64,000 nt of DNA from Escherichia coli (GCF_041248615.1 NZ_CP158426.1); one strand, 5' to 3'. Numbered from the stretch's first letter, positions 27,034-44,531 are shown. Program-made: numbers and translations. Notes: generated by a model from the sequence alone, not told the origin.

Positions 27034-28935
27034 ATGTCAACCGGATTACGTTTCACACTGGAAGTGGACGGCCTGCCGCCGGATGCTTTTGCGGTGGTTT
27101 CCTTTCATCTGAACCAGTCACTCTCTTCGCTCTTTTCCCTCGATCTCTCCCTGGTCAGCCAGCAGTTTCTCTCCCTTGAATTTGCGCAGGTGCTGGACAA
27201 AATGGCCTACCTGACGGTATGGCAGGGCGATGACGTACAGCGCCGGGTGAAAGGCGTGGTGACCTGGTTTGAACTCGGGGAGAACGACAAAAACCAGATG
27301 CTGTACAGCATGAAGGTGCACCCGCCGCTGTGGCGTGCCGGTCTGCGCCAGAACTTCCGTATCTTCCAGAACGAGGACATCAAAAGCATCCTCGGCACGA
27401 TGTTGCAGGAAAACGGGGTGACCGAATGGAGTCCGCTGTTCAGCGAGCCGCATCCTTCCCGTGAGTTTTGTGTCCAGTACGGTGAGACTGATTACGATTT
27501 CCTGTGCCGGATGGCGGCGGAGGAAGGCATCTTCTTTTATGAGGAGCATGCTTACAAAAGTACCGACCAGAGCCTGGTGCTGTGCGACACAGTCCGCCAT
27601 CTGCCCGAATCTTTTGAAATCCCATGGAACCCGAACACCCGTACCGAGGTGAGCACCCTCTGCATCAGCCAGTTCCGCTACAGCGCACAAATCCGCCCTT
27701 CTTCCGTGGTGACCAAAGACTACACCTTTAAACGCCCCGGCTGGGCCGGACGTTTTGAACAGGAAGGCCAGCACCAGGACTACCAGCGCACGCAGTATGA
27801 AGTGTATGACTACCCCGGACGTTTCAAGGGTGCCCACGGGCAGAACTTTGCCCGCTGGCAGATGGACGGCTGGCGAAACAATGCAGAAACCGCGCGGGGA
27901 ATGAGTCGCTCGCCGGAGATATGGCCGGGACGACGAATTGTGCTGACGGGGCATCCGCAGGCGAACCTGAACCGGGAATGGCAGGTGGTGGCAAGTGAAC
28001 TGCACGGCGAACAGCCACAGGCGGTGCCAGGACGGCAGGGAGCGGGGACGGCGCTGGAGAACCATTTTGCGGTGATCCCGGCAGACAGAACATGGCGACC
28101 ACAGCCGTTGCTGAAACCGCTGGTCGACGGCCCGCAGAGCGCTGTCGTGACAGGACCGGCAGGCGAGGAAATCTTCTGCGACGAACATGGTCGCGTGCGG
28201 GTGAAGTTCAACTGGGACCGCTATAACCCGTCAAACCAGGACAGTTCGTGCTGGATCCGTGTGGCACAGGCGTGGGCAGGCACCGGTTTTGGCCACCTGG
28301 CGATACCGCGTGTGGGTCAGGAGGTGATTGTAGACTTCCTCAACGGCGATCCGGACCAGCCGATCATTATGGGGCGCACCTACCACCAGGAAAACCGCAC
28401 CCCCGGCAGCCTGCCGGGAACAAAGACGCAGATGACCATCCGCTCCAAAACGTACATGGGCAGCGGATTTAATGAGCTGAAGTTTGATGATGCGACAGGG
28501 AGAGAACAGGTCTACATCCACGCGCAGAAGAACATGGATACCGAAGTGCTCAACGACCGTACCACCACCGTAAAACACGATCACCACGAAACCGTAAAAA
28601 ATGACCAGACGGTCACGATCCAGGAAGGTAACCGCCTTCTTACGGTGGAAAAAGGCCACAAGATCACCGGAGTACTGAAAGGGTCTTTATCTGAGGATGT
28701 CTTTCAGGACAGAGGCACGATTGCCGGTTCGGTGCATGTTGACGCTGTAAACAATGGTGGCGAAGGCGACGGTATACAGGCTTATACGGCGATTAAGGAA
28801 ATTTTGCTGGCCGTGGAGGAAAGCAAAATTGCGCTGACGCCGGATGGCATTCAGCTACAGGTCGGGGAATCGACGGTAATCAGGCTGTCGAAGGATGGCA
28901 TCACCATCGTGGGCGGTTCTGTTTTCATCAACTGA
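27034..28935 (+). CDS. vgrG: VgrG spike protein (type VI secretion; Rhs-associated Vgr)
   Basis: 633 aa, gp27/gp5-like VgrG sequence directly upstream of Eag-like and PAAR-Rhs genes. Confidence 0.9.
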   Translation: MSTGLRFTLEVDGLPPDAFAVVSFHLNQSLSSLFSLDLSLVSQQFLSLEFAQVLDKMAYLTVWQGDDVQRRVKGVVTWFELGENDKNQMLYSMKVHPPLWRAGLRQNFRIFQNEDIKSILGTMLQENGVTEWSPLFSEPHPSREFCVQYGETDYDFLCRMAAEEGIFFYEEHAYKSTDQSLVLCDTVRHLPESFEIPWNPNTRTEVSTLCISQFRYSAQIRPSSVVTKDYTFKRPGWAGRFEQEGQHQDYQRTQYEVYDYPGRFKGAHGQNFARWQMDGWRNNAETARGMSRSPEIWPGRRIVLTGHPQANLNREWQVVASELHGEQPQAVPGRQGAGTALENHFAVIPADRTWRPQPLLKPLVDGPQSAVVTGPAGEEIFCDEHGRVRVKFNWDRYNPSNQDSSCWIRVAQAWAGTGFGHLAIPRVGQEVIVDFLNGDPDQPIIMGRTYHQENRTPGSLPGTKTQMTIRSKTYMGSGFNELKFDDATGREQVYIHAQKNMDTEVLNDRTTTVKHDHHETVKNDQTVTIQEGNRLLTVEKGHKITGVLKGSLSEDVFQDRGTIAGSVHVDAVNNGGEGDGIQAYTAIKEILLAVEESKIALTPDGIQLQVGESTVIRLSKDGITIVGGSVFIN

Positions 28936-28962: not shown

Positions 28963-29424
28963 ATGCAGTTCACTTTTAATGAAGGCCACATTCAACTGCC
29001 GTCTCAATGGCAGGATCAGTCAATGCAGGTCCTGGTGTCCACAGATAACAGTGGCATCAACCTGGTCATTACCCGCGAAGCCGTTCCACAGGGAACCCTG
29101 ACACCAGAGCTGTACCAGGAAACGCTGGCGCTGTACCAGGGCAAACTTGATGGGTACACCGAACATGCCTGCCGGGAAATCACTCTGGCAGAGGCCCCGG
29201 CCTGGCTGCTGGATTATTCCTGGAACGGTCCGGAAGATGAGGGGAATCAGGGGCGGATTAGCCAGATAGCCGTATTCCAGCGGCGTGGAGATACGCTGCT
29301 GACCTTCACTTTCAGCACCTCCTTATCCCTGAAGAACAGTCAAAAGACGATGCTGCTGGAGGTGATAAAGAGCTTCACCCCGTTGCCACCGGAGAATGAC
29401 ATCCAAAAGGACCAGCCGCGCTGA
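28963..29424 (+). CDS. DUF1795 (Eag-family) effector-associated chaperone
   Basis: 153 aa small protein immediately upstream of a prePAAR-Rhs effector; position and size typical of Eag chaperones. Confidence 0.7.
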   Translation: MQFTFNEGHIQLPSQWQDQSMQVLVSTDNSGINLVITREAVPQGTLTPELYQETLALYQGKLDGYTEHACREITLAEAPAWLLDYSWNGPEDEGNQGRISQIAVFQRRGDTLLTFTFSTSLSLKNSQKTMLLEVIKSFTPLPPENDIQKDQPR

Positions 29425-29443: not shown

Positions 29444-32400
29444 ATGAGTGAAGGACCAGGCGGGCCACAGGGAGCGACCGCAGGCGGTACGCTGGCAATG
29501 CGAATGCTGTCACAGCAGGCGATGGTCGCCAGCCAGATGAAACGGGCAGCCAACGACAAAGCCATTGCACAGATGCTGGCATCAAAAAAGTCCGGCCCCC
29601 CCGCCGCCAGGCTGGGCGATGAAATTCAGCACAAGAGTTTTTTGGGGGCGCTGGCAGGGGCCGTGCTGGGGGCGATAGTGACCATCGCAGAAGGTTGCCT
29701 GATTATGGCCGCCTGTGCCACCGGCCCTTATGCGCTGGTTCTGGTGCCTGCGCTGATGTATGCCAGCTATAAGGCGAGTGATTATGTGGAGGAGAAACAG
29801 AACCAGCTTGAATCATGGATAAACAGCTTTTGTGACACGGACGGCGCCATCAATACCGGTTCTGAAAATGTAAACATTAACGGAAAGCCCGCTGCCAGGG
29901 CCGCCGTCACCCTTCCCCCTCCTCCCCCACCTGGAGCAATACCTGAAATCCCACAGGGGGAACCCTCATGGGGTGATATTGCCACTGACCTGCTTGAATC
30001 GGCAGCGGAAAAAGCAGTACCACTGGCGAAGGCCTGGGGGAACGCTGTTATCACCCTGACGGACAGCAATGCCGGTTTTATGGATCGCGTCAGCGCCGGC
30101 GCATCGCTTCTGTTTCCCGCCGGTCCGGTATTAATGGAGTTTGCCACCATGGTGGGCGGGCGTGGCGAAATCAAAAAAGACGTGGATTTCCCGGAAGCCG
30201 GTGAGGACACGGCGCTCTGCGACAAGGAGAACAAACCGCCGAGGATAGCCCAGGGCAGCAGCAACGTCTTTATCAACAATCAGCCTGCTGCACGCAAGGG
30301 GGACAAACTGGAGTGCAGTGCGGCAATCGTGGAAGGTTCGCCGGACGTCTTTATTGGGGGTGAGCAGGTCACCTATCTGGATATCCAGCCGGAGTTCCCG
30401 CCGTGGCAGAGAATGATCCTGGGGGGAATAACGATAGCCAGCTATCTTCTGCCGCCAGCGGGACTGCTGGGAAAACTGAAGAATCTGGCGAGACTCGGCA
30501 AACTGGGAAACCTGCTGGGGAAAAGCGGGAAGCTGCTGGGGGCAAAGCTCGGCGCGTTGCTGGGGAAAACAGGTAAGTCGTTAAAAAGTATTGCCAATAA
30601 AGTCATCAGATGGGTAACAGATCCTGTCGATCCGGTAACCGGCGCATACTGCGACGAACGTACCGACTTTACGCTGGGCCAGACACTCCCCCTCTCCTTC
30701 ACCCGTTTCCACAGTTCTGTACTGCCACTGCATGGCCTGACGGGCGTGGGCTGGAGCGACTCCTGGAGCGAATACGCCTGGGTGCGTGAACAGGGAAACC
30801 GGGTGGATATCATCAGCCAGGGAACCACGCTGAGATTTGCCTTCGACGGTGACAGTGATACGGCGGTTAACCCGTATCACGCCCAGTACATTCTGCGCCG
30901 CCGCGATGATTACCTGGAGCTGTTCGACAGGGATGCACTGAGCAGCCGCTTCTTTTATGACGCCTTTCCGGGAATGCGTCTGCGCCACCCGGTGACTGAC
31001 GATACCAGCGATGACCGTCTGGCACACAGCCCCGCAGACCGGATGTACATGCTGGGCGGGATGAGCGACACCGCCAGCAACCGCATCACGTTTGAGCGCG
31101 ACAGCCAGTACCGGATCACAGGTGTCAGTCACACTGACGGGATCCGGCTTAAACTGACGTACCACGCCAGCGGCTACCTGAAAGCCATTCACCGCACGGA
31201 TAACGGCATACAGACGCTGGCGACCTACGAACAGGATGCGCGGGGGCGGCTGACAGAAGCGGATGCGCGGCTGGACTACCACCTGTTTTATGAGTACGAC
31301 GCTGCGGACCGGATCATCCGCTGGTCCGATAACGACCAGACGTGGAGCCGTTTCACCTACGATGAACAGGGCCGGTGCGTGAATGTCACCGGGGCGGAGG
31401 GCTATTACAACGCCACGCTGGACTATGGTGACGGCTGCACCACCGTGACGGACGGCAAGGGCATTCACCGTTATTACTATGATCCTGACGGCAATATTCT
31501 GCGGGAAGCAGCGCCGGACGGCAGCACCACCATGTATGAATGGGATGAATTCCATCACCTGCTGGCCCGTCACTCCCCTGCCGGGCGGGTGGAGAAATTT
31601 GAATACAACGCCGCACACGGTCAGTTAAGCCGTTACACGGCGGCAGACGGCGCGGAGTGGCAGTACCGCTATGATGAGCGCGGCCTGCTCAGCAACATCA
31701 CCGACCCTGCCGGGCAGACGTGGACACAGCAGTGTGATGAACGCGGCCTGCCGGTAAGTCTGGTGTCGCCACAGGGCGAAGAGACCCGGCTGGCATACAC
31801 CGCTCAGGGGCTGCTGTCGGGAATATTCCGCCAGGATGAACGGCGTCTGGGCATAGAGTACGACCACCACAACCGGCCGGAAACACTCACCGACGTGATG
31901 GGCCGCGAACACCACACCGAATACAGTGGTCACGACCTGCCGGTGAAGATGCGCGGCCCCGGCGGTCAGTCAGTGCGCTTACAGTGGCAGCAGCACCATA
32001 AACTGAGTGGCCTTGAGCGCACTGGCACCGGCGCGGAAGGATTCCGCTACGACCGCCACGGCAACCTGCTGGCCTGGACGGACGGTAACGGTGTTGTCTG
32101 GACAATGGAATACGGCCCGTTTGATTTGCCGGTGGCGCGAACGGACGGTGAAGGCCACCGCTGGCAGTACCGCTACGATAAAGACACGCTGCAACTGACA
32201 GAAGTCATTAACCCGCAGGGTGAGTCATATCTTTATGTTCTGGATAACTGCGGCCGGGTGACGGAAGAGCATGACTGGGGCGGCGTGGTCTGGCGTTACC
32301 GCTATGACGCCGATGGCCTGTGTACCGCCAGGGTCAACGGCCTGGAGGAAACCATCCTCTACAGCCGGGACGCCGCAGGCCGCCTGGCAGAAGTCATCAC

Positions 32401-34303
32401 GCCGGAAGGCAAAACGCAGTATGCCTATGACAAATCCGGCAGGCTGACGGGTATCTTCAGCCCGGACGGCACATCACAGCGCACCGGCTATGACGAACGC
32501 GGGCGGGTGAATGTCACCACTCAGGGCCGACGGGCCATTGAATACCACTACCCCGACGAACACACCGTCATCCGCTGTATCCTGCCACCGGAAGATGAAC
32601 GCGACAGACACCCCGGTGAATCCCTGCTGAAAACCACGTACCGCTACAACGCCGCCGGAGAACTGACGGAGGTCATTCTGCCGGGGGATGAGACGCTGAC
32701 GTTCAGCCGTGATGAGGCAGGACGTGAAGTGCTCCGGCACAGTAACCGGGGTTTTGCCTGTGAACAGGGCTGGAATGCAGCCGGTCAGCCTGTCAGTCAG
32801 CGCGCCGGACTTTTCCCGGCAGAAGCCACATGGGGCGGGCTGCTCCCCTCACGGGTACGGGAGTACCGTTACGACAGCGCGGGTAATGTGTCAGGCGTCA
32901 CCAGCCGGGAAGATTACGGACGGGAAACACGGCGGGAATACCGGCTGGACCGGAACGGCCAGGTCACGGCGGTGACAGCCTCAGGCACCGGGCTGGGCTA
33001 TGGCGAAGGCGATGAGTCCTATGGCTATGACAGCTGCGGCTACCTGAAGGCGCAGTCTGCGGGCTGGCACCGGATAAGTGAAGAGACTGACCAGTATGCC
33101 GGAGGCCACCGGCTGAAACAGGCCGGAAACACGCAGTATGACTATGACGCCGCAGGCCGGATGGTCAGCCGCACCAGACACCGTGACGGCTATCGCCCGG
33201 AAACAGAGCGGTTCCGGTGGGACAGCCGTGACCAGCTGACCGGGTATTGCAGCGCACAGGGTGAGCAGTGGGAATACCGCCACGACGCCAGCGGCAGACG
33301 AACAGAGAAACGCTGCGACCGGAAGAAAATCCGCATCACGTACCTGTGGGACGGCGACAGTATTGCGGAAATCCGGGAATACCGCGATGATAAACTGTAC
33401 AGCGTACGGCACCTGGTGTTTAACGGCTTTGAGCTGATAAGCCAGCAGTTCAGCCGGGTACGGCAGGCGCATCCGTCGGTGGCCCCGCAGTGGGTGACAC
33501 GGACGAATCATGCGGTGAGCGACCTGACGGGCCGTCCGCTGATGCTCTTTAACAGTGAAGGTAAAACCGTCTGGCGACCGGGACAGACCAGCCTGTGGGG
33601 GCTGGCACTCAGCCTGCCCGCGGACACCGGCTACCCGGACCCGCGCGGGGAGCTGGACGCGGAAGCCGCCCCCGGCCTGCTGTATGCGGGACAGTGGCAG
33701 GATGCGGAATCGGGGCTGTGCTATAACCGGTTCCGGTACTACGAGCCGGAAACCGGGATGTACCTGGTGAGTGATCCGCTGGGGTTGCAGGGAGGGGAAC
33801 AGACTTACCGGTATGTGCCTAATCCGTGTGGGTATGTTGATCCGCTGGGGCTGGCAAAAACTTCTGTTCCCGTATCAATAGTAGAACCAAAAAAAATCAC
33901 TGGTAACTTTAAAACAATTCGAGAAAAATTAAGGCTTGCCAGGAATGGTGATGTTTCTGCACAAGCCGAAATTGCATACGCAAAATATATGCGTAGTTTG
34001 GGAAAGGATGTGCATTTCAATACACCTCCGAATCGCTCAGTATCAATGGCAGATTTTACAATTGATGGAATCCAGGTTGATACAAAATTATTGAGTGGTA
34101 TAGGCGGAAATGCTGCAAAAAATGTTAACAAGGGAGTTGGCCAGGTGGGAGATAATGGTATCGTCCTGGTAATTAGAAATTCTAATTCCAAAAATACACT
34201 TGAGGAATTTCATGAATTCTTTGGAAACTTCAAACCTAATAATTCAACAGTTCGAGTTGAAGTGATTGATCAATCCGTTTTAGAACCTTTTTGGAGATTT
34301 TAA
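29444..34303 (+). CDS. rhs: prePAAR/PAAR-Rhs polymorphic toxin (full length) with variable C-terminal toxin domain CT1
   Basis: 1619 aa; prePAAR motif AARLGDEIQH (29603-29632), two TM helices, PAAR-like region, many YD repeats, demarcation PxxxxDPxGL (PCGYVDPLGL), then AT-rich 149-aa CT. Confidence 0.95.
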   Translation: MSEGPGGPQGATAGGTLAMRMLSQQAMVASQMKRAANDKAIAQMLASKKSGPPAARLGDEIQHKSFLGALAGAVLGAIVTIAEGCLIMAACATGPYALVLVPALMYASYKASDYVEEKQNQLESWINSFCDTDGAINTGSENVNINGKPAARAAVTLPPPPPPGAIPEIPQGEPSWGDIATDLLESAAEKAVPLAKAWGNAVITLTDSNAGFMDRVSAGASLLFPAGPVLMEFATMVGGRGEIKKDVDFPEAGEDTALCDKENKPPRIAQGSSNVFINNQPAARKGDKLECSAAIVEGSPDVFIGGEQVTYLDIQPEFPPWQRMILGGITIASYLLPPAGLLGKLKNLARLGKLGNLLGKSGKLLGAKLGALLGKTGKSLKSIANKVIRWVTDPVDPVTGAYCDERTDFTLGQTLPLSFTRFHSSVLPLHGLTGVGWSDSWSEYAWVREQGNRVDIISQGTTLRFAFDGDSDTAVNPYHAQYILRRRDDYLELFDRDALSSRFFYDAFPGMRLRHPVTDDTSDDRLAHSPADRMYMLGGMSDTASNRITFERDSQYRITGVSHTDGIRLKLTYHASGYLKAIHRTDNGIQTLATYEQDARGRLTEADARLDYHLFYEYDAADRIIRWSDNDQTWSRFTYDEQGRCVNVTGAEGYYNATLDYGDGCTTVTDGKGIHRYYYDPDGNILREAAPDGSTTMYEWDEFHHLLARHSPAGRVEKFEYNAAHGQLSRYTAADGAEWQYRYDERGLLSNITDPAGQTWTQQCDERGLPVSLVSPQGEETRLAYTAQGLLSGIFRQDERRLGIEYDHHNRPETLTDVMGREHHTEYSGHDLPVKMRGPGGQSVRLQWQQHHKLSGLERTGTGAEGFRYDRHGNLLAWTDGNGVVWTMEYGPFDLPVARTDGEGHRWQYRYDKDTLQLTEVINPQGESYLYVLDNCGRVTEEHDWGGVVWRYRYDADGLCTARVNGLEETILYSRDAAGRLAEVITPEGKTQYAYDKSGRLTGIFSPDGTSQRTGYDERGRVNVTTQGRRAIEYHYPDEHTVIRCILPPEDERDRHPGESLLKTTYRYNAAGELTEVILPGDETLTFSRDEAGREVLRHSNRGFACEQGWNAAGQPVSQRAGLFPAEATWGGLLPSRVREYRYDSAGNVSGVTSREDYGRETRREYRLDRNGQVTAVTASGTGLGYGEGDESYGYDSCGYLKAQSAGWHRISEETDQYAGGHRLKQAGNTQYDYDAAGRMVSRTRHRDGYRPETERFRWDSRDQLTGYCSAQGEQWEYRHDASGRRTEKRCDRKKIRITYLWDGDSIAEIREYRDDKLYSVRHLVFNGFELISQQFSRVRQAHPSVAPQWVTRTNHAVSDLTGRPLMLFNSEGKTVWRPGQTSLWGLALSLPADTGYPDPRGELDAEAAPGLLYAGQWQDAESGLCYNRFRYYEPETGMYLVSDPLGLQGGEQTYRYVPNPCGYVDPLGLAKTSVPVSIVEPKKITGNFKTIREKLRLARNGDVSAQAEIAYAKYMRSLGKDVHFNTPPNRSVSMADFTIDGIQVDTKLLSGIGGNAAKNVNKGVGQVGDNGIVLVIRNSNSKNTLEEFHEFFGNFKPNNSTVRVEVIDQSVLEPFWRF

Positions 34304-34307
34304 AAAT

Positions 34308-34784
34308 ATGATCACCAAATCAAGTATACTCATAGAGTATAAAGATAAAAGTAAACTAACCGAAAGTATTTATAAGTTTGTAAATGCTCTAGATATTGAC
34401 TTTTCGATATTAAAATATGACTACTTTGATGTAAATGAGTATAAAAAAAATATTACTTATGACACATCTTTTATTGACAAAGATGCAGAATATATTGAAT
34501 TATTAGCGAAGATTGATTTTTCTTATGAAGTTGATTTCGGCACATCAACAACATCGATTGAAAGCAAGTATCTTCCATCTCTAACTGATTTCATCGCTCA
34601 ATCACTATCACAACAATTAAATTGTAACATAATAACCAGCTTTAAACCATTAAGTGGAGATGAGTTTTGCCCAATAACATATTTTTCAAAAGGTAAAGAA
34701 GTTATCAATTTTACGACATTTAATTCAAATTGTTGGGATGGGGTATACTGGGTAAAAAAAAGGAGGCAAACAAATATCCGCTAA
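34308..34784 (+). CDS. Putative cognate immunity protein for Rhs CT1
   Basis: 158 aa, AT-rich ORF 5 nt after the rhs stop, in the usual immunity position. Confidence 0.6.
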   Translation: MITKSSILIEYKDKSKLTESIYKFVNALDIDFSILKYDYFDVNEYKKNITYDTSFIDKDAEYIELLAKIDFSYEVDFGTSTTSIESKYLPSLTDFIAQSLSQQLNCNIITSFKPLSGDEFCPITYFSKGKEVINFTTFNSNCWDGVYWVKKRRQTNIR

Positions 34785-34902: not shown

Positions 34903-37233
34903 GTGAAGATGCGCGGCCCCGGCGGTCAGTCAGTGCGGTTGCAGTGGCAGCAGCACCATAAACTGAGTGGCCTTGAGCGCACTGGCACCGGCGCGGAAGG
35001 GTTCAGCTATGACCGCCACGGCAACCTGCTGGCCTGGACGGACGGCAATGGTGTTGTCTGGACAATGGAGTACGGCCCGTTCGATTTGCCGGTGGCGCGA
35101 ACGGACGGTGAAGGCCACCGCTGGCAGTACCGCTATGATAAAGACACGCTGCAACTGACAGAAGTCATTAACCCGCAGGGTGAGTCATATCTTTATGTTC
35201 TGGATAACTGCGGCCGGGTGACGGAAGAGCATGACTGGGGCGGCGTGGTCTGGCGTTACCGCTATGACGCCGATGGCCTGTGTACCGCCAGGGTCAACGG
35301 CCTGGAGGAAACCATCCTCTACAGCCGGGACGACGCAGGCCGCCTGGCAGAAGTCATCACGCCGGAAGGCAAAACGCAGTATGCGTATGACAAATCCGGC
35401 AGGCTGACGGGTATCTTCAGCCCGGACGGCACATCACAGCGCACCGGCTATGACGAACGCGGGCGGGTGAATGTCACCACTCAGGGCCGACGGGCCATTG
35501 AATACCACTACCCCGATGAACACACCGTCATCCGCTGTATCCTGCCACCGGAAGATGAACGCGACAGACACCCCGGTGAATCCCTGCTGAAAACCACGTA
35601 CCGCTACAACGCAGCCGGAGAACTGGCAGAGGTCATCCTGCCGGAGGATGAGACGCTGACGTTCAGCCGTGATGAGGCAGGACGTGAAGTGCTCCGGCAC
35701 AGTAACCGGGGTTTTGCCTGTGAGCAGGGCTGGAATGCAGCCGGTCAGCTTACCAGCCAGCGCGCCGGACTTTTCCCGGCAGAAGCCACATGGGGCGGGC
35801 TGCTCCCCTCACGGGTACGGGAGTACCGTTACGACAGCGCGGGTAATGTGTCAGGCGTCACCAGCCGGGAAGATTACGGACGGGAAACACGGCGGGAATA
35901 CCGGCTGGACCGGAACGGCCAGGTCACGGCGGTGACAGCCTCAGGCACCGGGCTGGGCTATGGCGAAGGCGATGAGTCCTATGGCTATGACAGCTGCGGC
36001 TACCTGAAGGCGCAGTCTGCGGGCTGGCACCGGATAAGTGAAGAGACTGACCAGTATGCCGGAGGCCACCGGCTGAAACAGGCCGGAAACACGCAGTATG
36101 ACTATGACGCCGCAGGCCGGATGGTCAGCCGCACCAGACACCGTGACGGCTATCGCCCGGAAACAGAGCGGTTCCGGTGGGACAGCCGTGACCAGCTGAC
36201 CGGGTATTGCAGCGCACAGGGTGAGCAGTGGGAATACCGCCACGACGCCAGCGGCAGACGAACAGAGAAACGCTGCGACCGGAAGAAAATCCGCATCACG
36301 TACCTGTGGGACGGCGACAGTATTGCGGAAATCCGGGAATACCGCGATGATAAACTGTACAGCGTACGGCACCTGGTGTTTAACGGCTTTGAGCTGATAA
36401 GCCAGCAGTTCAGCCGGGTACGGCAGGCGCATCCGTCGGTGGCCCCGCAGTGGGTGACACGGACGAATCATGCGGTGAGCGACCTGACGGGCCGTCCGCT
36501 GATGCTCTTTAACAGTGAAGGTAAAACCGTCTGGCGACCGGGACAGACCAGCCTGTGGGGGCTGGCACTCAGCCTGCCCGCGGACACCGGCTACCCGGAC
36601 CCGCGCGGGGAACTGGACGCGGAAGCCGACCCCGGCCTGCTGTATGCAGGACAGTGGCAGGATGCGGAATCCGGGCTGTGCTATAACCGGTTCCGGTATT
36701 ACGAGCCGGAAACAGGGATGTACCTGGTGAGTGATCCGCTGGGGTTGCTGGGGGGTGAGCAGACTTACCGGTATGTGCCGAATCCGTGTGGGTATGTTGA
36801 TCCTTTGGGATTAGCAACATGTCCCATAATCAGACAACGGGTGCTGGCTAACCTTGAAGCCAGTCGGGCAGCAAGGGCTGCATCTAATTTTGGTAAGAAA
36901 AATATCTATGATTTTATCAAGGCAACTCAATCTGCTATCCCTGGCACCTCTATCCCAAAATCTTTTGAGATTATAACTGCTAATGGTACTTTCTGGGTAC
37001 ACCCAAATGCTACAAAACATATGGCTGAATATTTGACTCGGAACGGTCTCTCACATTCAACTTCTGTAGAGAGCCAAATAATGTTAACAAGTTTTCACGA
37101 AGCTGTAAGTTTGGCTAGTGCTCAAGGTATAAAGTATGAAGAAATGATGAATGTTGGCGGCTGGGAACTAGTATTTAGTCAAGCTAAATCTGACTCGGCT
37201 TTATCAGTTATTAAACATGCTCTTTATAAATGA
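34903..37233 (+). CDS. rhs: Orphan 5'-truncated rhs fragment (core repeat plus distinct C-terminal toxin CT2)
   Basis: 776-aa ORF with GTG start; 34892-36813 nearly identical to main rhs 31932-33853; PxxxxDPxGL followed by unrelated 139-aa CT. Confidence 0.85.
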   Translation: MKMRGPGGQSVRLQWQQHHKLSGLERTGTGAEGFSYDRHGNLLAWTDGNGVVWTMEYGPFDLPVARTDGEGHRWQYRYDKDTLQLTEVINPQGESYLYVLDNCGRVTEEHDWGGVVWRYRYDADGLCTARVNGLEETILYSRDDAGRLAEVITPEGKTQYAYDKSGRLTGIFSPDGTSQRTGYDERGRVNVTTQGRRAIEYHYPDEHTVIRCILPPEDERDRHPGESLLKTTYRYNAAGELAEVILPEDETLTFSRDEAGREVLRHSNRGFACEQGWNAAGQLTSQRAGLFPAEATWGGLLPSRVREYRYDSAGNVSGVTSREDYGRETRREYRLDRNGQVTAVTASGTGLGYGEGDESYGYDSCGYLKAQSAGWHRISEETDQYAGGHRLKQAGNTQYDYDAAGRMVSRTRHRDGYRPETERFRWDSRDQLTGYCSAQGEQWEYRHDASGRRTEKRCDRKKIRITYLWDGDSIAEIREYRDDKLYSVRHLVFNGFELISQQFSRVRQAHPSVAPQWVTRTNHAVSDLTGRPLMLFNSEGKTVWRPGQTSLWGLALSLPADTGYPDPRGELDAEADPGLLYAGQWQDAESGLCYNRFRYYEPETGMYLVSDPLGLLGGEQTYRYVPNPCGYVDPLGLATCPIIRQRVLANLEASRAARAASNFGKKNIYDFIKATQSAIPGTSIPKSFEIITANGTFWVHPNATKHMAEYLTRNGLSHSTSVESQIMLTSFHEAVSLASAQGIKYEEMMNVGGWELVFSQAKSDSALSVIKHALYK

Positions 37234-37763
37234 CGATTATGCTTACATTAGAAAATGAAACAAACTACAAAGATGTTGTTGTTAATATAGATGAATTTGT
37301 ACCTTTTGATATAACTTTTGGAAAGGGGAGCGAACAGTGTTTGTACTGGAGAGGCGGCAATGGTAAAAGTTCTTTGGTTGAAGTTGGGTTAAATATGTAC
37401 AGCGGAGAAGTAAGTAACATCACACTAGCAAATATCGATTCAGGTGAAATTAACATTACAGATGAGATGTTAGCCAACAACCTTCCTGAAATACAAGGGT
37501 CTGTTATATTTCAGACAAGCGAGTGGCTTAATAAAGACATTTCCGAATACTCAAACAGATTTATTGATGATTTTGATTGCAATATCAAGTTAATAATTGG
37601 TAGTAATTACATTAAATTATTATTTAAAAAAGCAACAAATCCCATTTGTTATATCATTAATAGGAATATAAGATTTGGTTTTTCTTTGAGTAGGGAACTT
37701 TCGACATTGGAAATATTAGACCTCAATCAAGAAAAATTAGATATTCTAAAGTTATTTAAATAG
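37230..37763 (+). CDS. Putative cognate immunity protein for orphan CT2
   Basis: 177 aa AT-rich ORF whose ATG overlaps the rhs-CT2 stop (ATGA). Confidence 0.6.
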   Translation: MTIMLTLENETNYKDVVVNIDEFVPFDITFGKGSEQCLYWRGGNGKSSLVEVGLNMYSGEVSNITLANIDSGEINITDEMLANNLPEIQGSVIFQTSEWLNKDISEYSNRFIDDFDCNIKLIIGSNYIKLLFKKATNPICYIINRNIRFGFSLSRELSTLEILDLNQEKLDILKLFK

Positions 37764-38242
37764 TTTTAGTGTTTGAAACTTACCGAGAGATGATAGCTAT
37801 GAATGAATACAAAAACATCCATCTTGGAGGAAACAATGGAATGTTAATCCATTAAAAAACATACTTCAATATCTTTAGTGAAGAAAGAGTTGTATGAAAG
37901 AAATATATCTTATGTGAGCGACATGATGCATGCTAATTATATTATTGGCCGGAAATTTTATGATGATAGCAAAAAGGAGGGGTTATTTCTGTAAGAATGG
38001 ATATACCCGCAGGGTTTGAACCAGACATTTATTTGTTGAAGTCTAAGATCCAAATGGAAGCATTTATATCCCTCAGATATTATGCGTTGACGGGTTGATA
38101 AAGATACTTTTAGAGGGTTAATAAATGGAGAACGTATAATAAATCTCTTAAACAAACTATAACCTGTACTAATGAAAAAAATGGGAATAGATAAGTTAAT
38201 AGCCTATTCTAAAAATGGTAAAGTGGTTTTACTTCCAAAATA

Positions 38243-38686
38243 ATGGAGTTTAGTATGAAAATCGAAGCTAATTCCCTTACTCATCCCTATGACTACAACG
38301 CCTCACTGAACAATTATTTACATTATTTTGAGAATTTCTCTCGTAATGACTGGAATAAAGATTCATGTGGAGGATATTTTACTTTTAGAGATGATGACAG
38401 AGAGTGTGTTTTGTTTTTTGTGAATTATGGTGATAATTTTTCATTGCGCTATGATTGTACACAAAGTTCTGATGGAATAGTGTCATGCTGGTATAGTAAC
38501 CATGAAGATGATAAAATGAATATCATCGTCGATGCTGATACAGAACAATTTATCCCTTTAGGTTCTTGCTTACCTCCTGATATTACTTTATCAGTAATAA
38601 AAGATTTTTTCAAAAATCCTTTAGAGAAATCAAAAAAAGTAAAATGGATGAATGCAGATGACATTGACTGGTCATCTGTGTATTAA
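38243..38686 (+). CDS. Hypothetical protein, possible orphan immunity protein
   Basis: 147 aa AT-rich ORF inside the Rhs island with no adjacent toxin; no recognised motif. Confidence 0.4.
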   Translation: MEFSMKIEANSLTHPYDYNASLNNYLHYFENFSRNDWNKDSCGGYFTFRDDDRECVLFFVNYGDNFSLRYDCTQSSDGIVSCWYSNHEDDKMNIIVDADTEQFIPLGSCLPPDITLSVIKDFFKNPLEKSKKVKWMNADDIDWSSVY

Positions 38687-38911
38687 AGTTGGATTGGATA
38701 ATTATCTGTTTCAAAAATCATTAAATTTAGAACCTATCTGTTCAACAGAGCTGCCTTGAACAGCAGGTTCTTTTATGATGTCCAGGAGCGAATATGCCTG
38801 TGATGTCTGGCACTCAGCATCTGACTGACCTGGACTACTGATCCTACTCACACAGGGAGCTAGACCTGGAAGCAACCTACTGTAAGCAGTGCAGTAGCAG
38901 CCCACCTCACA

Positions 38912-38950
38912 TCAGTCCTTGCAAGGTGTGGGCCTTTGTGATCTTGCTCT
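38912..38950. mobile_element. Degenerate remnant resembling the right terminus of an H-repeat/ISAs1-family element
   Basis: About 31 of 40 nt identical to the right end of the complete H-repeat copy at 44492-44531. Confidence 0.3.
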
Positions 38951-39297
38951 GTATTGCTGAGATCCTCAGGAAGGACTCGAAATTTAATCAGGAAGGCCGT
39001 TGCTAAAAATCAAAAAATAAATTCAAGAGCAATTTCTAAAACTTTTGAATCTACTGTATCGGATGAGGTTTTCACTCCTTTCCAAAAGGTGAGTTTTCAA
39101 GCATTCAAGTTTCTGTTATGACCAAAACTTCACCATTTAACACTAATCCGAGTATTATGTTACCATGAAGAAAAAAGATATTAGATTTGCAATATCCATT
39201 AACTCCAACTCAAGTAAGATAGAATTAATGGAAAAATTAAAAACATAATCCCAGGGCTTATTGAAATAACTCCCAGTGCATTAAGAGAAGAAAAAAC

Positions 39298-39513
39298 ATG
39301 GTAGTTATTGAAGATAATGATCTTTATGACCCTATAAAAGCAGAGGGAGTTGATGGATGGATGTATTATAAATTCATATTATCCATATTCCCATTAAAGG
39401 GAGTAGACACAACATTAGAATATCAACGGGAATTATCTTTTCTTTTCTTAAAGAAATTAAAAGATGCGGGTCTGTTAGGTGAACTTATATGCGAGGATGA
39501 TTTTCATGACTGA
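39298..39513 (+). CDS. Hypothetical small protein (71 aa), possible immunity-gene remnant
   Basis: ORF only; AT-rich; within Rhs island. Confidence 0.25.
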   Translation: MVVIEDNDLYDPIKAEGVDGWMYYKFILSIFPLKGVDTTLEYQRELSFLFLKKLKDAGLLGELICEDDFHD

Positions 39514-39577
39514 TGACCTCTACATATATCCTCAGTTCGTGGCTGGTATTACATGATCTGACAGGGAAAGATCGTAG

Positions 39578-39873
39578 CGAAATCAAAAAAGACGTGGATT
39601 TCCCGGAAGCCGGTGAAGACACAGCGCTCTGCGACAAGGAGACTAAACCGCCGAGGATAACCCAGGGCAGCAGCAACGTTTTTATCAACAATCAGCCCGC
39701 CGCGCGCAAGGGGGACAAACTGGAGTGCAGTGCGGCGATCGTGGGAGGTTCGCCGGACGTCTTTATTGGGGGTGAGCAGGTCACCTATCTGGATATCCAG
39801 CCGGAGTTCCCGCCGTGGCAGAGAATGATCCTGGGGGGAATAACGATAGCCAGCTATCTTCTGCCGCCAGCGC
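39578..39873 (+). pseudogene. Fragment of a PAAR-Rhs N-terminal (PAAR) region
   Basis: About 296 bp nearly identical to main rhs 30166-30461; lies in track ORF 39513-39890; abutted on the right by H-repeat end sequence. Confidence 0.75.
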
Positions 39874-39960
39874 AGGGAAAGATCACGTAACGCTGCTTTT
39901 TTGTACTAAATAATTCGCACTAAATGTTCAATAATTGAGATATTCCTTATTACCTAAATA
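39874..39960. mobile_element. Left-terminus remnant (about 85 bp) of an H-repeat/ISAs1-family element
   Basis: Matches the first ~90 bp of the complete H-repeat at 43242-43335 (cagggaaagatca...ttgtactaaataattcgca...ttgagatattcct). Confidence 0.55.
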
Positions 39961-40003
39961 CAGTTCCACCAAGATTACCTAAACCCAAATGAGGTAAAAG
40001 ATA

Positions 40004-40372
40004 GTGGGTATGAATAAAAATGAAATCCATTTCCCTATAGGATATGGTTGGTTGAATGAAAAAAAAATTATTGGCACCAGTGAATTTAGCCAATTAGAAC
40101 CATGGTTTTATCTAGATGAGAACAGGTGTTTTTTTGCGAATAAAAAATGGCCAAATGTCATAGGTGAACAATTATTCGCTTTTGCTAAACGTCAAGATAA
40201 TGATGAATTGGCTTGTTTCAAAATTAATGAATCTGGAGTCTGTGAGGGTGTTTATTTAATTAATGGGTGGACTCCTAACGGGTTTGATATTATACAATTT
40301 TACCCTGATTTTTGGGAATGGGTACATTTGGTTATACAAGATGTCTCGGAGTGGATTGATAATAAAGGATAA
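40004..40372 (+). CDS. Hypothetical protein, possible orphan immunity protein
   Basis: 122 aa AT-rich ORF upstream of orphan rhs-CT3; no recognised motif. Confidence 0.4.
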   Translation: MGMNKNEIHFPIGYGWLNEKKIIGTSEFSQLEPWFYLDENRCFFANKKWPNVIGEQLFAFAKRQDNDELACFKINESGVCEGVYLINGWTPNGFDIIQFYPDFWEWVHLVIQDVSEWIDNKG

Positions 40373-40401
40373 TTTGAAACAAAAGTAAAAAACCGCCTTC
40401 A

Positions 40402-41100
40402 TTGAAGGTAACGTGGAGTGGTGGGCGGAGCAGCCTGCCCGCAGACACAGACTACCCGGACCCGCGCGGGGAGCGGGACGCGGAAGCCGACCCCGGCCTG
40501 CTGTATGCAGGACAGTGGCAGGATGCGGAATCCGGACTGTGCTATAACCGGTTCCGGTATTACGAGCCGGAAACCGGGATGTACCTGGTGAGTGATCCCC
40601 TGGGGTTGCTGGGGGGTGAGCAGACTTACCGGTATGTGCCTAATCCTAGTGGGTATGTTGATCCTCTGGGATTAGCAACGTGTCCTATACTCAGACAGTG
40701 GGCGCTGACTAACCTTGAAGCCAGTCGGGCAGCAAGGGCTGCATCTAATTTTGGTAAGCCTCTGGTCCAGCGAAATAAAACGATTGGCGATAAAGTAAGG
40801 GATATGATTGCCAAAGAGAGGGGAACCACTCTAATTGAACAAAATTATAGAGTGACAGGAGGATTAAAGCGTATTGACGTTGTTGATGGAGTAACGGGTA
40901 TAGAATCTAAAGTCGGTCGAACAGGGTTAACAACCCGAGTACGGCAAGAGGTAGCGCGGGATATTAAGATTTTGAGAAGTGAGCAACTTGATCAAATTGA
41001 ATGGGTGTTTACAAGAAGTTCAACTACAGGGAAGATTGGGCCAACTAAACCACTTGAAGATCTTTTAAATAAACATGGTATACCGATTATTTATCGATAA
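40402..41100 (+). CDS. rhs: Orphan rhs C-terminal fragment (short core remnant plus toxin CT3 with possible PD-(D/E)xK-like motif)
   Basis: 232-aa ORF with TTG start; 40432-40674 homologous to the end of the main rhs core; PxxxxDPxGL then 141-aa CT containing RIDVVDGVTGIESK. Confidence 0.8.
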   Translation: MKVTWSGGRSSLPADTDYPDPRGERDAEADPGLLYAGQWQDAESGLCYNRFRYYEPETGMYLVSDPLGLLGGEQTYRYVPNPSGYVDPLGLATCPILRQWALTNLEASRAARAASNFGKPLVQRNKTIGDKVRDMIAKERGTTLIEQNYRVTGGLKRIDVVDGVTGIESKVGRTGLTTRVRQEVARDIKILRSEQLDQIEWVFTRSSTTGKIGPTKPLEDLLNKHGIPIIYR

Positions 41101-41111
41101 GGAGTGATAGT

Positions 41112-41681
41112 GTGAAACTCAAACCGATTGGTGACTTTTTAAACAAAAATGGGTTTATAAAAAATGGTAACAATGATTTTTATAAAGTTCATGATAAGTT
41201 TGTAAATTGTATAAATTTTCAAAAAAAGAGTACAGGTGATATTTTTTTTATAAACACAGGTGTTCATCCTGTGTTCGAAAATTTTTGCAATGAACCACCG
41301 AAAAAAGAAATAGATTGTTACATCCGTAACCGTGTGTGTGATGGACTAAGTATATCTTTGCTGCATTCTTTTGAAGGTAGTGAGTTTGTTATCAGTGAGA
41401 TAAAAAACAAAGCGTTTTGTTTTTTTGAATACTTTGATTCATTGAATAAAATATTCGATGCTATTCGTGTTGTAGATATTGAAGAGAGAAATATTTGCGA
41501 TGAGCTAAGTGGTGTAAGCAGCGTAAGATTAGCTTTGATGTGTATGAACTACCAGTATGAGAAAAAAAAATTTAGCCTTGTTTCTGATTTTGCGAACTAT
41601 GGTCTTGCTATATCTAGAGGCCCGGTACCGAAAAAAGCATTGGATTTGCCCCTATATTTCCAGACACCTGTTATCACTTAA
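41112..41681 (+). CDS. Putative immunity protein for CT3, 3' end disrupted by IS2
   Basis: 189-aa ORF; last 13 codons lie inside IS2; the original frame resumes after the IS2 target duplication. Confidence 0.55.
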
Positions 41682-42557
41682 CCCATTACTGGCCTGCTGC
41701 CGCAGATATTCCCGTGGCGAGCGATAACCCAGTGCACTATGCGGATGCCATTCGTTATAATGCTCGAACGCCTCTGCAAGGTTCTTTGCTGCCGTTAACC
41801 CGTCTGGTTTAGGCATGATACTGATGTAGTCACGCTTTATCGTTTTCACGAAGCTCTCTGCTATGCCGTTACTCTCCGGACTCCGCACCGCCGTGTTCTT
41901 CGGTTCAAGCCCCAATATCCGGGCAAACTGCCGTGTTTCATTAGCCCGGTAGCATGAACCATTATCCGTCAGCCACTCTACTGGAGACGCCGGAAGCTCG
42001 TTGCCGAAGCGGCGTTCCACCGCTCCCAGCATGACGTCCTGTACTGTTTCACTGTCGAAGCCGCCCGTAGTGACTGCCCAGTGCAGTGCCTCACGGTCAC
42101 AGCAGTCCAGCGCGAACGTGACTCGCAGTTTTTCTCCGTTATCACAGCGGAACTCGAACCCGTCAGAGCACCATCGTTGATTGCTTTCTTTCACGGCCAC
42201 TTTGCCAGTATGTGCCCGTTTCGATGGCGGTACAGCGGTTTTTCGCTCAAGCAACAGCGCATTCTGGCGCATGATCCGGTAAACACGTTTGGCATTGATC
42301 GCAGGCGTACCATCAAGTTCGGCCTGTCTGCGAAGCAGCGCCCATACCCGACGATAACCATACGTGGGCAGCTCTCCGATAACATGGTGTATACGGAGAA
42401 GCACATCCGTATCATCTGAGTGACGGCTGCGGCGACCATCTTTCCAGTCATCGGTTCGTCTGAGAATTACGTGCAACTGCGCACGCGACACCCGGAGACA
42501 ACGGCTGACTAAGCTTACTCCCCATCCCCGGGCAATAAGGGCGCGTGCGCTATCCAC
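41652..42557 (-). CDS. insD: IS2 transposase OrfB
   Basis: 301 aa integrase-core protein recognised as IS2 InsD. Confidence 0.95.
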
Positions 42558-43242: not shown

Positions 43243-44531
43243 AGGGAAAGATCATCCAAAGTACACTTTTTGTACTAAATAATTCGCATTTTATGTTTAA
43301 AAATTGAGATATTCCTCATTACCTAAAGCTGTTTTTATTGCTTATACATGATCAAATACTCCTTACATAATTAAGGAGAACAAAATGGAACTTAAAAAAT
43401 TGATGGAGCATATTTCTATTATCCCCGATTACAGACAAGCCTGGAAAGTGGAACATAAATTATCGGATATTCTACTGTTGACTATTTGTGCCGTTATTTC
43501 TGGTGCAGAAGGTTGGGAAGATATAGAGGATTTTGGGGAAACACATCTCGATTTTTTAAAACAATATGGTGATTTTGAAAATGGTATTCCTGTTCACGAT
43601 ACCATCGCCAGAGTTGTATCCTGTATCAGTCCTTCAAAATTTCACGAGTGCTTTATTAACTGGATGCGAGATTGCCATACTTCAGATGATAAAGACGTTA
43701 TTGCAATCGATGGAAAAACACTCCGGCATTCTTATGACAAGAGTCGCCGCAGGGGAGCGATTCATGTCATTAGTGCGTTCTCAACAATGCACAGTCTGGT
43801 CATCGGACAGATCAGAACGGATGAGAAATCTAATGAGATTACAGCTATCCCAGAACTTCTTAACATGCTGTATATTAAAGGAAAAATCATCACAACTGAT
43901 GCGATGGGTTGCCAGAAAGATATTGCAGAGAAGATACAAAAACAGGGCGGTGATTATTTATTCGCTGTAAAAGGAAACCAGGGGCGGCTTAATAAAGCCT
44001 TTGAGGAAAAATTTCCACTGAAAGAATTAAATAATCCAGAGCATGACAGTTACGCCATTAGTGAAAAGAGTCACGGCAGAGAAGAAATCCGTCTTCATAT
44101 TGTTTGCGATGTCCCTGATGAACTTATTGATTTCACGTTTGAATGGAAAGGACTGAAGAAATTATGTGTGGCAGTCTCCTTTCGGTCAATAATAGCAGAA
44201 CAAAAGAAAGAGCCAGAAATGACGGTCAGATATTATATCAGTTCTGCTGATTTAACCGCAGAGAAGTTCGCCACAGCAATCCGAAACCACTGGCACGTGG
44301 AGAATAAGCTGCACTGGCGTCTGGACGTGGTAATGAATGAAGACGACTGCAAAATAAGAAGAGGAAACGCCGCAGAATTATATTCAGGGATACGGCACAT
44401 CGCTATTAATATTTTAACGAATGATAAGATATTCAAGGCAGGGTTAAGACGTAAGATGCGAAAAGCAGCCATGGGCAGAAACTATCTCGCGTCAGTCCTT
44501 GCGGGGAGCGGGCTTTCGTAATCTTGCCCTG
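43242..44531 (+). mobile_element. H-repeat (ISAs1-family) insertion element, complete copy of about 1.29 kb
   Basis: Imperfect terminal inverted repeats cagggaaagatca / (reverse complement) cagggcaagatta; encodes a 378-aa transposase. Confidence 0.8.
43385..44521 (+). CDS. H-repeat-associated (ISAs1-family DDE) transposase
   Basis: 378 aa, recognised as the H-repeat protein family found next to Rhs elements. Confidence 0.9.

Follow-up and report, generated by a model that had tools for sequence, protein, structure and literature searches.

A type VI secretion system (T6SS) rhs cluster on the chromosome of Escherichia coli (GCF_041248615.1, NZ_CP158426.1) raises the question of what a short peptide, shared by two otherwise unrelated toxins, is doing at the boundary between an Rhs core and its C-terminal toxin region (CT). 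We analysed a stretch of 64,000 nucleotides (the window), which was 100% identical to many clinical isolates and contained a main rhs gene with two 5'-truncated orphans downstream; the corresponding regions are referred to as CT1 (main gene), CT2 (orphan 1) and CT3 (orphan 2). The core of all three copies ended in two DPLGL motifs, 17 residues apart, and in both orphans a block of 28 residues stood directly after the second motif. We propose that this block is probably the enterobacterial Rhs form of a widespread alpha-helical pre-toxin motif, found where the constant part of a polymorphic toxin gives way to the variable part. The features of the two orphans, taken from the list of open reading frames (ORFs) and from translations, profile hidden Markov models (HMMs) and structure prediction, were as follows.

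34903..37233, + strand: orphan 1, rhs core fragment truncated at its 5' end, followed by the block and the CT2 toxin (ORF list, translation)
36733-36747 and 36799-36813, + strand: DPLGL motif pair of orphan 1 with 17 residues between, an aspartyl-protease autocleavage signature
36814..36897, + strand: block copy 1, ATCP then the predicted pre-toxin helix motif, motif proper 36826-36897 (translation, HMM, AlphaFold2)
36898..37230, + strand: CT2 toxin domain, predicted CdiA-CT(EC869)-type BECR tRNase (phmmer, Foldseek)
40402..41100, + strand: orphan 2, an rhs core tail of ~90 aa, then the block, then the CT3 toxin (ORF list, translation)
40594-40608 and 40660-40674, + strand: DPLGL motif pair of orphan 2 (motif scan)
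40675..40758, + strand: block copy 2, with R9W and V10A at otherwise conserved motif positions, motif proper 40687-40758 (translation, HMM, column statistics)
40759..41097, + strand: CT3 toxin domain (position after the block)

Orphan 1 was translated as ...YVDPLGL, ATCPIIRQRVLANLEASRAARAASNFGK, KNIYDF..., and orphan 2 as ...YVDPLGL, ATCPILRQWALTNLEASRAARAASNFGK, PLVQRN..., the middle part of each being the block (36814-36897 and 40675-40758, respectively). An earlier note on this DNA had described a segment of ~27 residues common to CT2 and CT3 after DPLGL; the shared segment stood, but its length was 28 residues, the ends given in the note falling one codon short. The two copies were identical at 24 of 28 residues (differences I6L, R9W, V10A and A12T) and at 77 of 84 bases, the seven DNA differences being confined to the first 36 nt and the remaining 48 nt being identical. 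Past the final Lys of the block no similarity between CT2 and CT3 was detectable and the block was the sole BLASTP signal between them, in agreement with the note's observation that the two toxins then become unrelated. We also considered CT2 and CT3 as distant homologues and rejected this, because the block accounts for all of the BLASTP match (34% identity, 97% of the query). CT1 diverged immediately after the cleavage motif, as the note had it: the main Rhs read DPLGL then AKTSVPVS... and lacked the block, and the motif HMM had no match in the main Rhs (29444-34303). Over the six-frame translation of the window the same HMM gave 42.8 bits for the first block, 37.2 bits for the second and scores below zero elsewhere. 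Chance is not at issue for the shared block, because both copies continue the homologous rhs core.

The identical 48 nt at the 3' end would fit some local gene conversion, and the block might then be nothing but a local duplication or conversion between the two orphans, with no wider meaning; the earlier note had named confinement to these two copies as the finding that would speak against its own reading. Of 5426 complete E. coli genomes searched at the DNA level, 142 carried the block, with 253 occurrences altogether; these included a full-length 1611-aa Rhs with block, CT3 and DUF4304 immunity gene in E. coli A15 (L002), and E. coli DETEC-S792 (L003), where the block was followed by an HNH-type tail. 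A scan of other genera, using one genome per species, placed it after DPLGL in Photorhabdus thracensis (three copies, LHH-like toxin), Superficieibacter (a toxin without assigned family) and Serratia silvae (a CT2-type toxin), and a search of representative proteins added Serratia fonticola, Dickeya oryzae and further tails (P0026, P0030-P0032). Mere local duplication is refuted by this occurrence in other strains and genera, in a full-length Rhs and ahead of many different toxins, and we give it next to no credence. In total the block preceded at least ten unrelated toxin tails: EC869-type tRNase, CT3, HNH (L003), RNase A-like (metagenomic fragment P0021), LHH-like (L006), TNT-like (P0031) and several without assignment. 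When eleven enterobacterial instances were aligned, they were conserved through ...S[NK]F and unrelated beyond; the tails in the two orphans of the window were 111-113 aa long. The alignment across genomes that had been suggested as a check delimits an Rhs subfamily with variable downstream domains.

Two observations on orphan cassettes came from the same scans. The genome of Photorhabdus thracensis DSM 15199 held block plus LHH-like toxin in triplicate, as identical copies (L006, L007, L008), two of which had almost no rhs core upstream (22-36 open codons), implying that orphan cassettes keep little beyond the second DPLGL and the block. In E. coli strain 1579 (NZ_CP103718.1, 3623773-3625749) the CT2 region matched in two pieces with an IS1 transposase annotated beneath, indicating a cassette interrupted by an insertion sequence (IS).

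To which side of the boundary the block belongs was read from DNA identity profiles. L002 (CT3) and L003 (HNH) had a common core tail (..NPNEYIDPLGL) and blocks that differed by five synonymous and no nonsynonymous changes; their DNA was 90-100% identical to +60 nt from the block start, then 73%, then <=70%. When CT3 of the window was compared with L002, the toxins were 93-100% identical and the blocks 83-90%, the region between the DPLGL motifs reaching only 67-70%. CT2 and CT3 of the window lost identity at the same place as L002 and L003 (near +80 nt). In three comparisons the break fell at the 3' end of the block. On these alignments the block variants follow the upstream core and not the toxin, and the profiles support the placement of the block on the constant side, with its 3' end as a probable recombination junction. 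CT1 uses the classical junction directly at DPLGL. The idea in the earlier note of a second recombination breakpoint for swapping the catalytic module gains support, because identity breaks at the 3' end of the block while CT1 uses the DPLGL junction. The main rhs gene and orphan 1 also had ~1.9 kb of near-identical core in common. Recombination between cores activates orphans in Salmonella (PMC3967940), and by analogy the homology between the main gene and orphan 1 would allow orphan-activating recombination here.

Since the block is contiguous with the toxin and would be released together with it, it might form the N-terminal part of the toxin fold and be required for catalysis or for binding of the immunity protein. 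The CT2 toxin domain matched chain B of the crystal structure 7VMC (phmmer 8e-41; Foldseek 64% identity, TM-score 0.93 normalised by target length). Three residues reported as catalytic or substrate-proximal in CdiA-CT(EC869), His216, Tyr220 and His281 (PMC9071432), had equivalents in CT2, read from the alignment as TKHM..EY and KHALYK. By homology, fold and these residues CT2 is predicted to be a CdiA-CT(EC869)-type BECR tRNase, and the ORF that follows (37230-37763) aligned with its immunity protein CdiI(EC869) (phmmer to 7VMC_C 3.4e-18 over residues 6-136). In CdiA and ~20 homologues (Pantoea, Erwinia, Photorhabdus, Faucicola) the CT2-type domain was preceded by quite different sequence, and the homology of these block-free proteins started exactly at the end of the block. 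The block is thus not part of the toxin fold, because the CT2-type domain occurs elsewhere without it. Structure prediction, another check proposed for the linker, gave one helix: for CT2, AlphaFold2 modelled the toxin domain with confidence (residues 31-139, predicted local distance difference test (pLDDT) mostly >90) and the block as a separate single helix (residues 4-23, pLDDT 56-64). The same helix was predicted for CT3, where the model was built on a 4-sequence alignment and was unreliable (mean pLDDT 40). Given that no such helix was part of the EC869-type tRNase domain in its crystal structure with EF-Tu and CdiI (7VMC), that the same block stands ahead of unrelated folds, and that AlphaFold2 sets it apart as a low-confidence helix, a role within the toxin fold is strongly disfavoured and we regard it as barely credible. 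The CT3 toxin domain had no match in Pfam, NCBIfam or PDB; its IDVVD...IESK pattern, recognised by eye only, suggests a PD-(D/E)xK nuclease. CT1 (33854-34300) gave as its only Pfam signal a weak, sub-threshold match to CdiA_C (PF18451, E=0.064).

The helix of the block was not confined to Enterobacteria. A 30-column block profile searched against 1.84 billion representative proteins (E<=1e-3) returned 32 matches, nearly all polymorphic-toxin-like. Among them were a DUF637 hemagglutinin-like protein of 2161 aa that held the motif twice (P0033, E=1.8e-12); an Ntox15 toxin of Streptococcus ruminantium, also with a pair of motifs, which lay ahead of Ntox15 (P0036); a protein whose gene, in a type VII secretion system (T7SS)-like locus, had an FtsK/SpoIIIE ATPase gene beside it (P0035); a protein in which PT-HINT and Peptidase_C39 came after two motif copies (P0037); Rhs_assc_core proteins of Streptococcus suis and a metagenome in which the motif lay 215-340 aa downstream of the core (P0043, P0047); Serratia proteins with deaminase-like tails assigned by eye (P0040, P0044); and fragments from metagenome-assembled genomes of Deltaproteobacteria and Gemmatales. 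The core of the block that these searches traced reads [KR]Q[RQ]VLxN[IL]xxS[KR]xARx[SA]SNF. The consensus of the motif was h-[KR]-[QE]-[RQ]-[VI]-[LM]-x-N-[IL]-x-x-S-[KRQ]-x-A-R-x-[SA]-S-[NK]-F. A second search used an artificial concatenation of 25 observed motif variants as query, with matches re-validated by a local HMM, and gave 355 matches, mostly LXG (PF04740) toxins of Streptococcus mitis/infantis. In these LXG toxins 2-3 motif copies, repeated in tandem every ~55-58 aa, stood between a hydrophobic region rich in Gly and Ala and a TNT (PF14021) or other tail, and in 151 fetched proteins the tails after the last motif fell into 27 sequence clusters (median 192 aa). When 117 LXG proteins were anchored on the motif Phe, conservation was ~0.9 through the motif and fell to 0.3-0.4 within ~10 residues after it, just as at the junction in the Rhs proteins. 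A profile made from Firmicutes sequences only gave positive scores in the six-frame translation of the window for the two blocks alone (28.5 and 15.2 bits; next best -5). In column statistics on 25 instances, N9, S13 and R17 never varied and A16, S20 and F22 were each conserved at 96%; all six, and V6 and I10 as well, lay in an arc of ~140 degrees on one helix face. Both window blocks combined a profile match with the invariant N, S and R, the near-invariant A, S and F and a position upstream of a toxin-like tail, as expected of the motif family defined here. By these sequence comparisons the motif consistently occupies the constant/variable junction and is spread over several phyla. The earlier suggestion of a common linker or pre-toxin element is supported and is extended to a motif shared with LXG type VII, hemagglutinin-like and Gram-positive Rhs toxins.

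Some matches stood apart from this set. P0034 was discarded as spurious; it is a repeat protein whose domain scores stayed <7 bits. P0048 (L013 2732-3679, metagenome contig), a 315-aa protein whose gene lay directly upstream of a phage terminase large-subunit gene, had four weak, degenerate motif-like copies (22, 20, 17 and 9.5 bits); its membership is doubtful and it is either a chance match or a hint of helix relatives in phage proteins. Among LXG, Gram-positive and metagenomic proteins whose upstream sequence was long enough, most had a Gly/Ala-rich, transmembrane (TM)-like segment 50-160 aa upstream of the first motif (seen in P0060, P0095, P0043, P0045, P0052, P0035 and P0037; 500 aa upstream in P0033; absent in P0047). 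Enterobacterial Rhs CT fragments had no TM-like segment near the motif, their TM helices being those of the prePAAR N-terminus.

The junction data could be read differently, the block being a passive spacer with a purely genetic role, i.e. a shared DNA patch for recombining cassettes onto the rhs core whose peptide has no function. Such a patch would account for breakpoints that coincide with the 3' end of the block and for the 48 identical nucleotides there, and it is consistent with orphan cassette ORFs that start at the motif (P0044, P0050; Serratia, metagenomes), with orphans that tolerate in-frame Ala-Ala-Arg (AAR) expansions (described below), and with CT1 working without the block. However, between genera the synonymous sites of the block were saturated and the peptide was kept, with a ratio of nonsynonymous to synonymous substitution rates (dN/dS) of 0.05-0.13 where computable. 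A mere patch of DNA homology is disfavoured because synonymous divergence (dS) is saturated between genera while the peptide is kept, and the block is under strong purifying selection at the protein level. Moreover, N, S, R, S and F hardly vary, if at all, between E. coli and Streptococcus, a distance at which DNA homology plays no part, and a passive linker would not conserve one helix face. We therefore consider a functionless spacer to be quite unlikely.

Two kinds of variation inside the block were observed. Of the substitutions R9W, V10A and A12T in the CT3 orphan (40699-40710), the first two alter motif positions at which 19 of 25 instances had R and 21 of 25 had V, respectively. At the substituted sites the consensus was retained in the full-length Rhs-CT3 of E. 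coli A15, and dN/dS between the CT3 and CT2 blocks was 0.45, which suggests drift in a silent orphan. Other strains had an in-frame expansion of a 9-nt unit, GCTGCAAGG (Ala-Ala-Arg), turning SRAARAAS into SRAAR(AAR)nAAS at a site homologous to window positions 36865-36888. One, five and ten extra units were present in strains 503440, JNU and UC4224, all in CT2 orphans annotated as pseudogenes (L001 1501-1596; L004 1501-1572 and downstream; L005 1501-1686). The repeat is a slippage-prone micro-variable number tandem repeat (micro-VNTR) and throws the conserved helix face out of register.

Taken together, we regard the following structural and genetic account as likely. A widespread pre-toxin motif of 22-24 residues, predicted to be alpha-helical, is the last constant segment before a swappable toxin domain, to which a short loop probably joins the helix; the 28-residue block, A-T-C-P followed by the helix, is the form that this motif takes in enterobacterial Rhs proteins. 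The spacing of the DPLGL pair matches that of Photorhabdus Rhs1, where autocleavage occurs after the second motif (PMC8636562); directly following the DPLGL(17)DPLGL autoproteolysis site, the block would become the N-terminus of the released C-terminal fragment. Toxin/immunity cassettes are exchanged by recombination directly 3' of the block, CT1 using the alternative junction at DPLGL. The comparisons show where the motif stands, that it is helical by prediction, that it does not depend on the type of toxin, that it goes with the constant side and has a junction 3' of it, and that it is under purifying selection and occurs in several phyla. Because the motif was kept from E. coli T6SS Rhs to streptococcal T7SS LXG proteins under strong purifying selection, we infer that the helix has a job at the protein level that is independent of toxin and secretion route. 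Its likeliest job would be that of a docking or adaptor helix in a step after secretion, such as release of the toxin, its passage through a membrane or its activation inside the target cell. A more specific and speculative conjecture, to which we attach little confidence, is that the motif is a secretion-system-independent docking helix, recognised by a conserved component of the target cell or membrane for the release or membrane transfer of cytosol-acting T5SS (type V), T6SS and T7SS toxins.

Alternatively, the functional motif may, as a sub-case, be a processing or recognition site, with the helix bound by a protease, chaperone or adaptor of the producer or target that releases or holds the toxin. 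The motif does adjoin processing elements, lying right after the Rhs aspartyl-protease site and right before PT-HINT in P0037, LXG toxins carry it in tandem, and pre-toxin domains have been proposed as possible processing sites (Zhang et al. 2012, PMC3482391). Yet no conserved partner gene was found in the few neighbourhoods inspected, and there was no invariant scissile-bond signature, the Asn of SNF being variable; we thus hold this sub-case to be rather unlikely.

Several points weigh against our account of the block as a functional pre-toxin helix. The function assigned to the motif is an inference from sequence and predicted structure only, and pLDDT for the AlphaFold2 helix was only 56-64. 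The same Rhs core in the window carries CT1 without the block, such that it is not needed for every toxin of this effector, and P0037 has the motif ahead of a HINT domain, such that the motif need not travel with the toxin. In-frame AAR expansions in some E. coli orphans (<=10 extra units), along with R9W and V10A in the CT3 copy, mean either that the helix tolerates change or that silent copies are decaying. Finally, the motif is short and Ala- and Arg-rich, at least one match (P0034) was spurious, and the motif may be described in literature beyond the open-access papers searched.

The remaining features of the locus place the two orphans in a T6SS rhs cluster.

27034..28935, + strand: VgrG spike gene (Pfam Phage_GPD 3.7e-74, Gp5_trimer_C, Phage_base_V; T6SS rhs cluster context)
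28963..29424, + strand: Eag-type chaperone, DcrB/DUF1795 family (Pfam DcrB 1.4e-27)
29444..34303, + strand: main class I prePAAR/PAAR Rhs effector with CT1 (translation; Pfam prePAAR_I, PAAR_motif)
33773-33787 and 33839-33853, + strand: DPLGL motifs of the main Rhs (translation)
34308..34784, + strand: putative CT1 immunity gene (position only)
37230..37763, + strand: CT2 immunity gene, CdiI(EC869)-like (phmmer to 7VMC_C 3.4e-18)
41112..41681, + strand: CT3 immunity gene, DUF4304 (Pfam DUF4304 5.1e-10; same pairing in E. coli A15)

A Pfam scan of the putative CT1 immunity gene (34308..34784) was without match. The organisation was that of Rhs C-terminal toxin modules, with DPLGL pairs at 36733/36799 and 40594/40660, a variable CT and downstream immunity ORFs. 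Both orphans had the form of orphan rhs-CT/immunity modules, their 5'-truncated cores, devoid of PAAR and N-terminal regions, lying downstream of a full-length rhs with shared core homology; that of orphan 1 was near-identical to the main Rhs core and began inside it (VKMRGPGG..., found in the main Rhs interior). Between the orphans, an ORF at 39513-39890 encoded a PAAR-region fragment of an Rhs N-terminus (Pfam PAAR_motif 5.7e-12), nearly identical to main Rhs residues ~240-345, and looks like a remnant of an earlier rearrangement. Two further ORFs in this interval, 38243-38686 (147 aa) and 40004-40372 (122 aa), had no Pfam match and, by position, may be orphan immunity genes from lost toxin cassettes. 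The rhs array was bounded by an IS3-family transposase (rve, HTH_21) at 41652-42557 (- strand), directly after the last immunity gene, together with a DDE_Tnp_1 transposase at 43385-44521 (+ strand).

The motif is a concrete, mutable candidate for a step common to the ways in which cytosol-acting T6SS Rhs and T7SS LXG toxins leave their carrier and cross the cytoplasmic membrane of the target, and if it is indeed a docking helix it offers a handle on how these toxins reach the cytoplasm; it may likewise be an adaptor onto which new toxin domains are grafted. Annotation of Rhs and LXG toxins is also refined, the true toxin beginning ~28 residues past DPLGL in this subfamily, and the motif can serve as a search handle for new toxin domains and orphan cassettes. 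Should the block be only a linker, it would still document a second, precisely placed recombination junction in rhs arrays.

Neither the block nor the motif matched any Pfam or NCBIfam model, even at E<=10, and a motif-profile search of the PDB gave only chance matches to designed repeat proteins. No description of the motif was found in open-access full-text literature searched for the motif string, LXG linkers and repeats, and pre-toxin motifs, and its novelty is conditional on none existing in resources outside that literature. The closest known layouts can nevertheless be compared. Main and orphan rhs arrays with CT/immunity modules demarcated by PxxxxDPxGL are well described (PMC3150448, PMC3967940), and the window, with a PAAR-Rhs and two orphans, is a textbook case; in those arrays, however, the variable region starts right after DPxGL, whereas the subfamily described here keeps 28 more constant residues, which results in a second junction. 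The Rhs protein RhsP of Vibrio parahaemolyticus is described as having an ordered 'linker domain' between core and toxin (Tang 2022, as cited in bioRxiv 10.1101/2024.02.26.582050); going by that secondary account, it resembles the block in lying between Rhs cleavage site and toxin without being part of the toxin. The RhsP linker is evidently another sequence, because no PDB chain matched the motif profile.

Bipartite CdiA-CTs (VENN, entry domain, toxin) have the same layout, with a constant demarcation motif, a shared non-catalytic N-terminal segment and a swappable toxin, and CdiA-CT(EC869) and CT2 of the window bring the same type of toxin/immunity pair (EC869-type tRNase plus CdiI) into both contexts. 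The CdiA entry domain, however, is folded and comprises ~170 residues, whereas the block is a single predicted helix of ~22 residues without sequence similarity to it. The modelled residues of CdiA-CT(EC869) start at 175 (PMC9071432); the block had no homology to the N-terminal part of 7VMC_B, and the likeness to a cytoplasm-entry domain is positional only. ALF repeats (PF03752) of actinobacterial polymorphic toxins likewise are short helical units rich in Ala that precede toxin domains, at times in tandem. The ALF HMM had no match at E<=10 on four motif-bearing segments, and to our knowledge the N/S/R/SNF signature of the motif does not match the ALF pattern.

The pre-toxin domains PT-VENN, PT-TG, PT-HINT and DUF637 (Zhang et al. 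2012, PMC3482391) fill the same slot between delivery part and toxin and likewise form the constant side of a recombination junction. The block matched none of them at E<=10 (PF04829, PF14449, PF07591 and PF04830, respectively), and where PT-HINT and DUF637 were present in motif-bearing proteins they stood at positions other than the motif. The motif is much shorter than these named domains, which, by the pathway table of PMC3482391 and general knowledge, are largely restricted to one pathway each, whereas the motif was found in toxins of the T6SS Rhs, T7SS LXG and hemagglutinin-like kinds. This sharing across toxins of different secretion routes is its unusual feature, and makes it a candidate new pre-toxin motif of polymorphic toxins.

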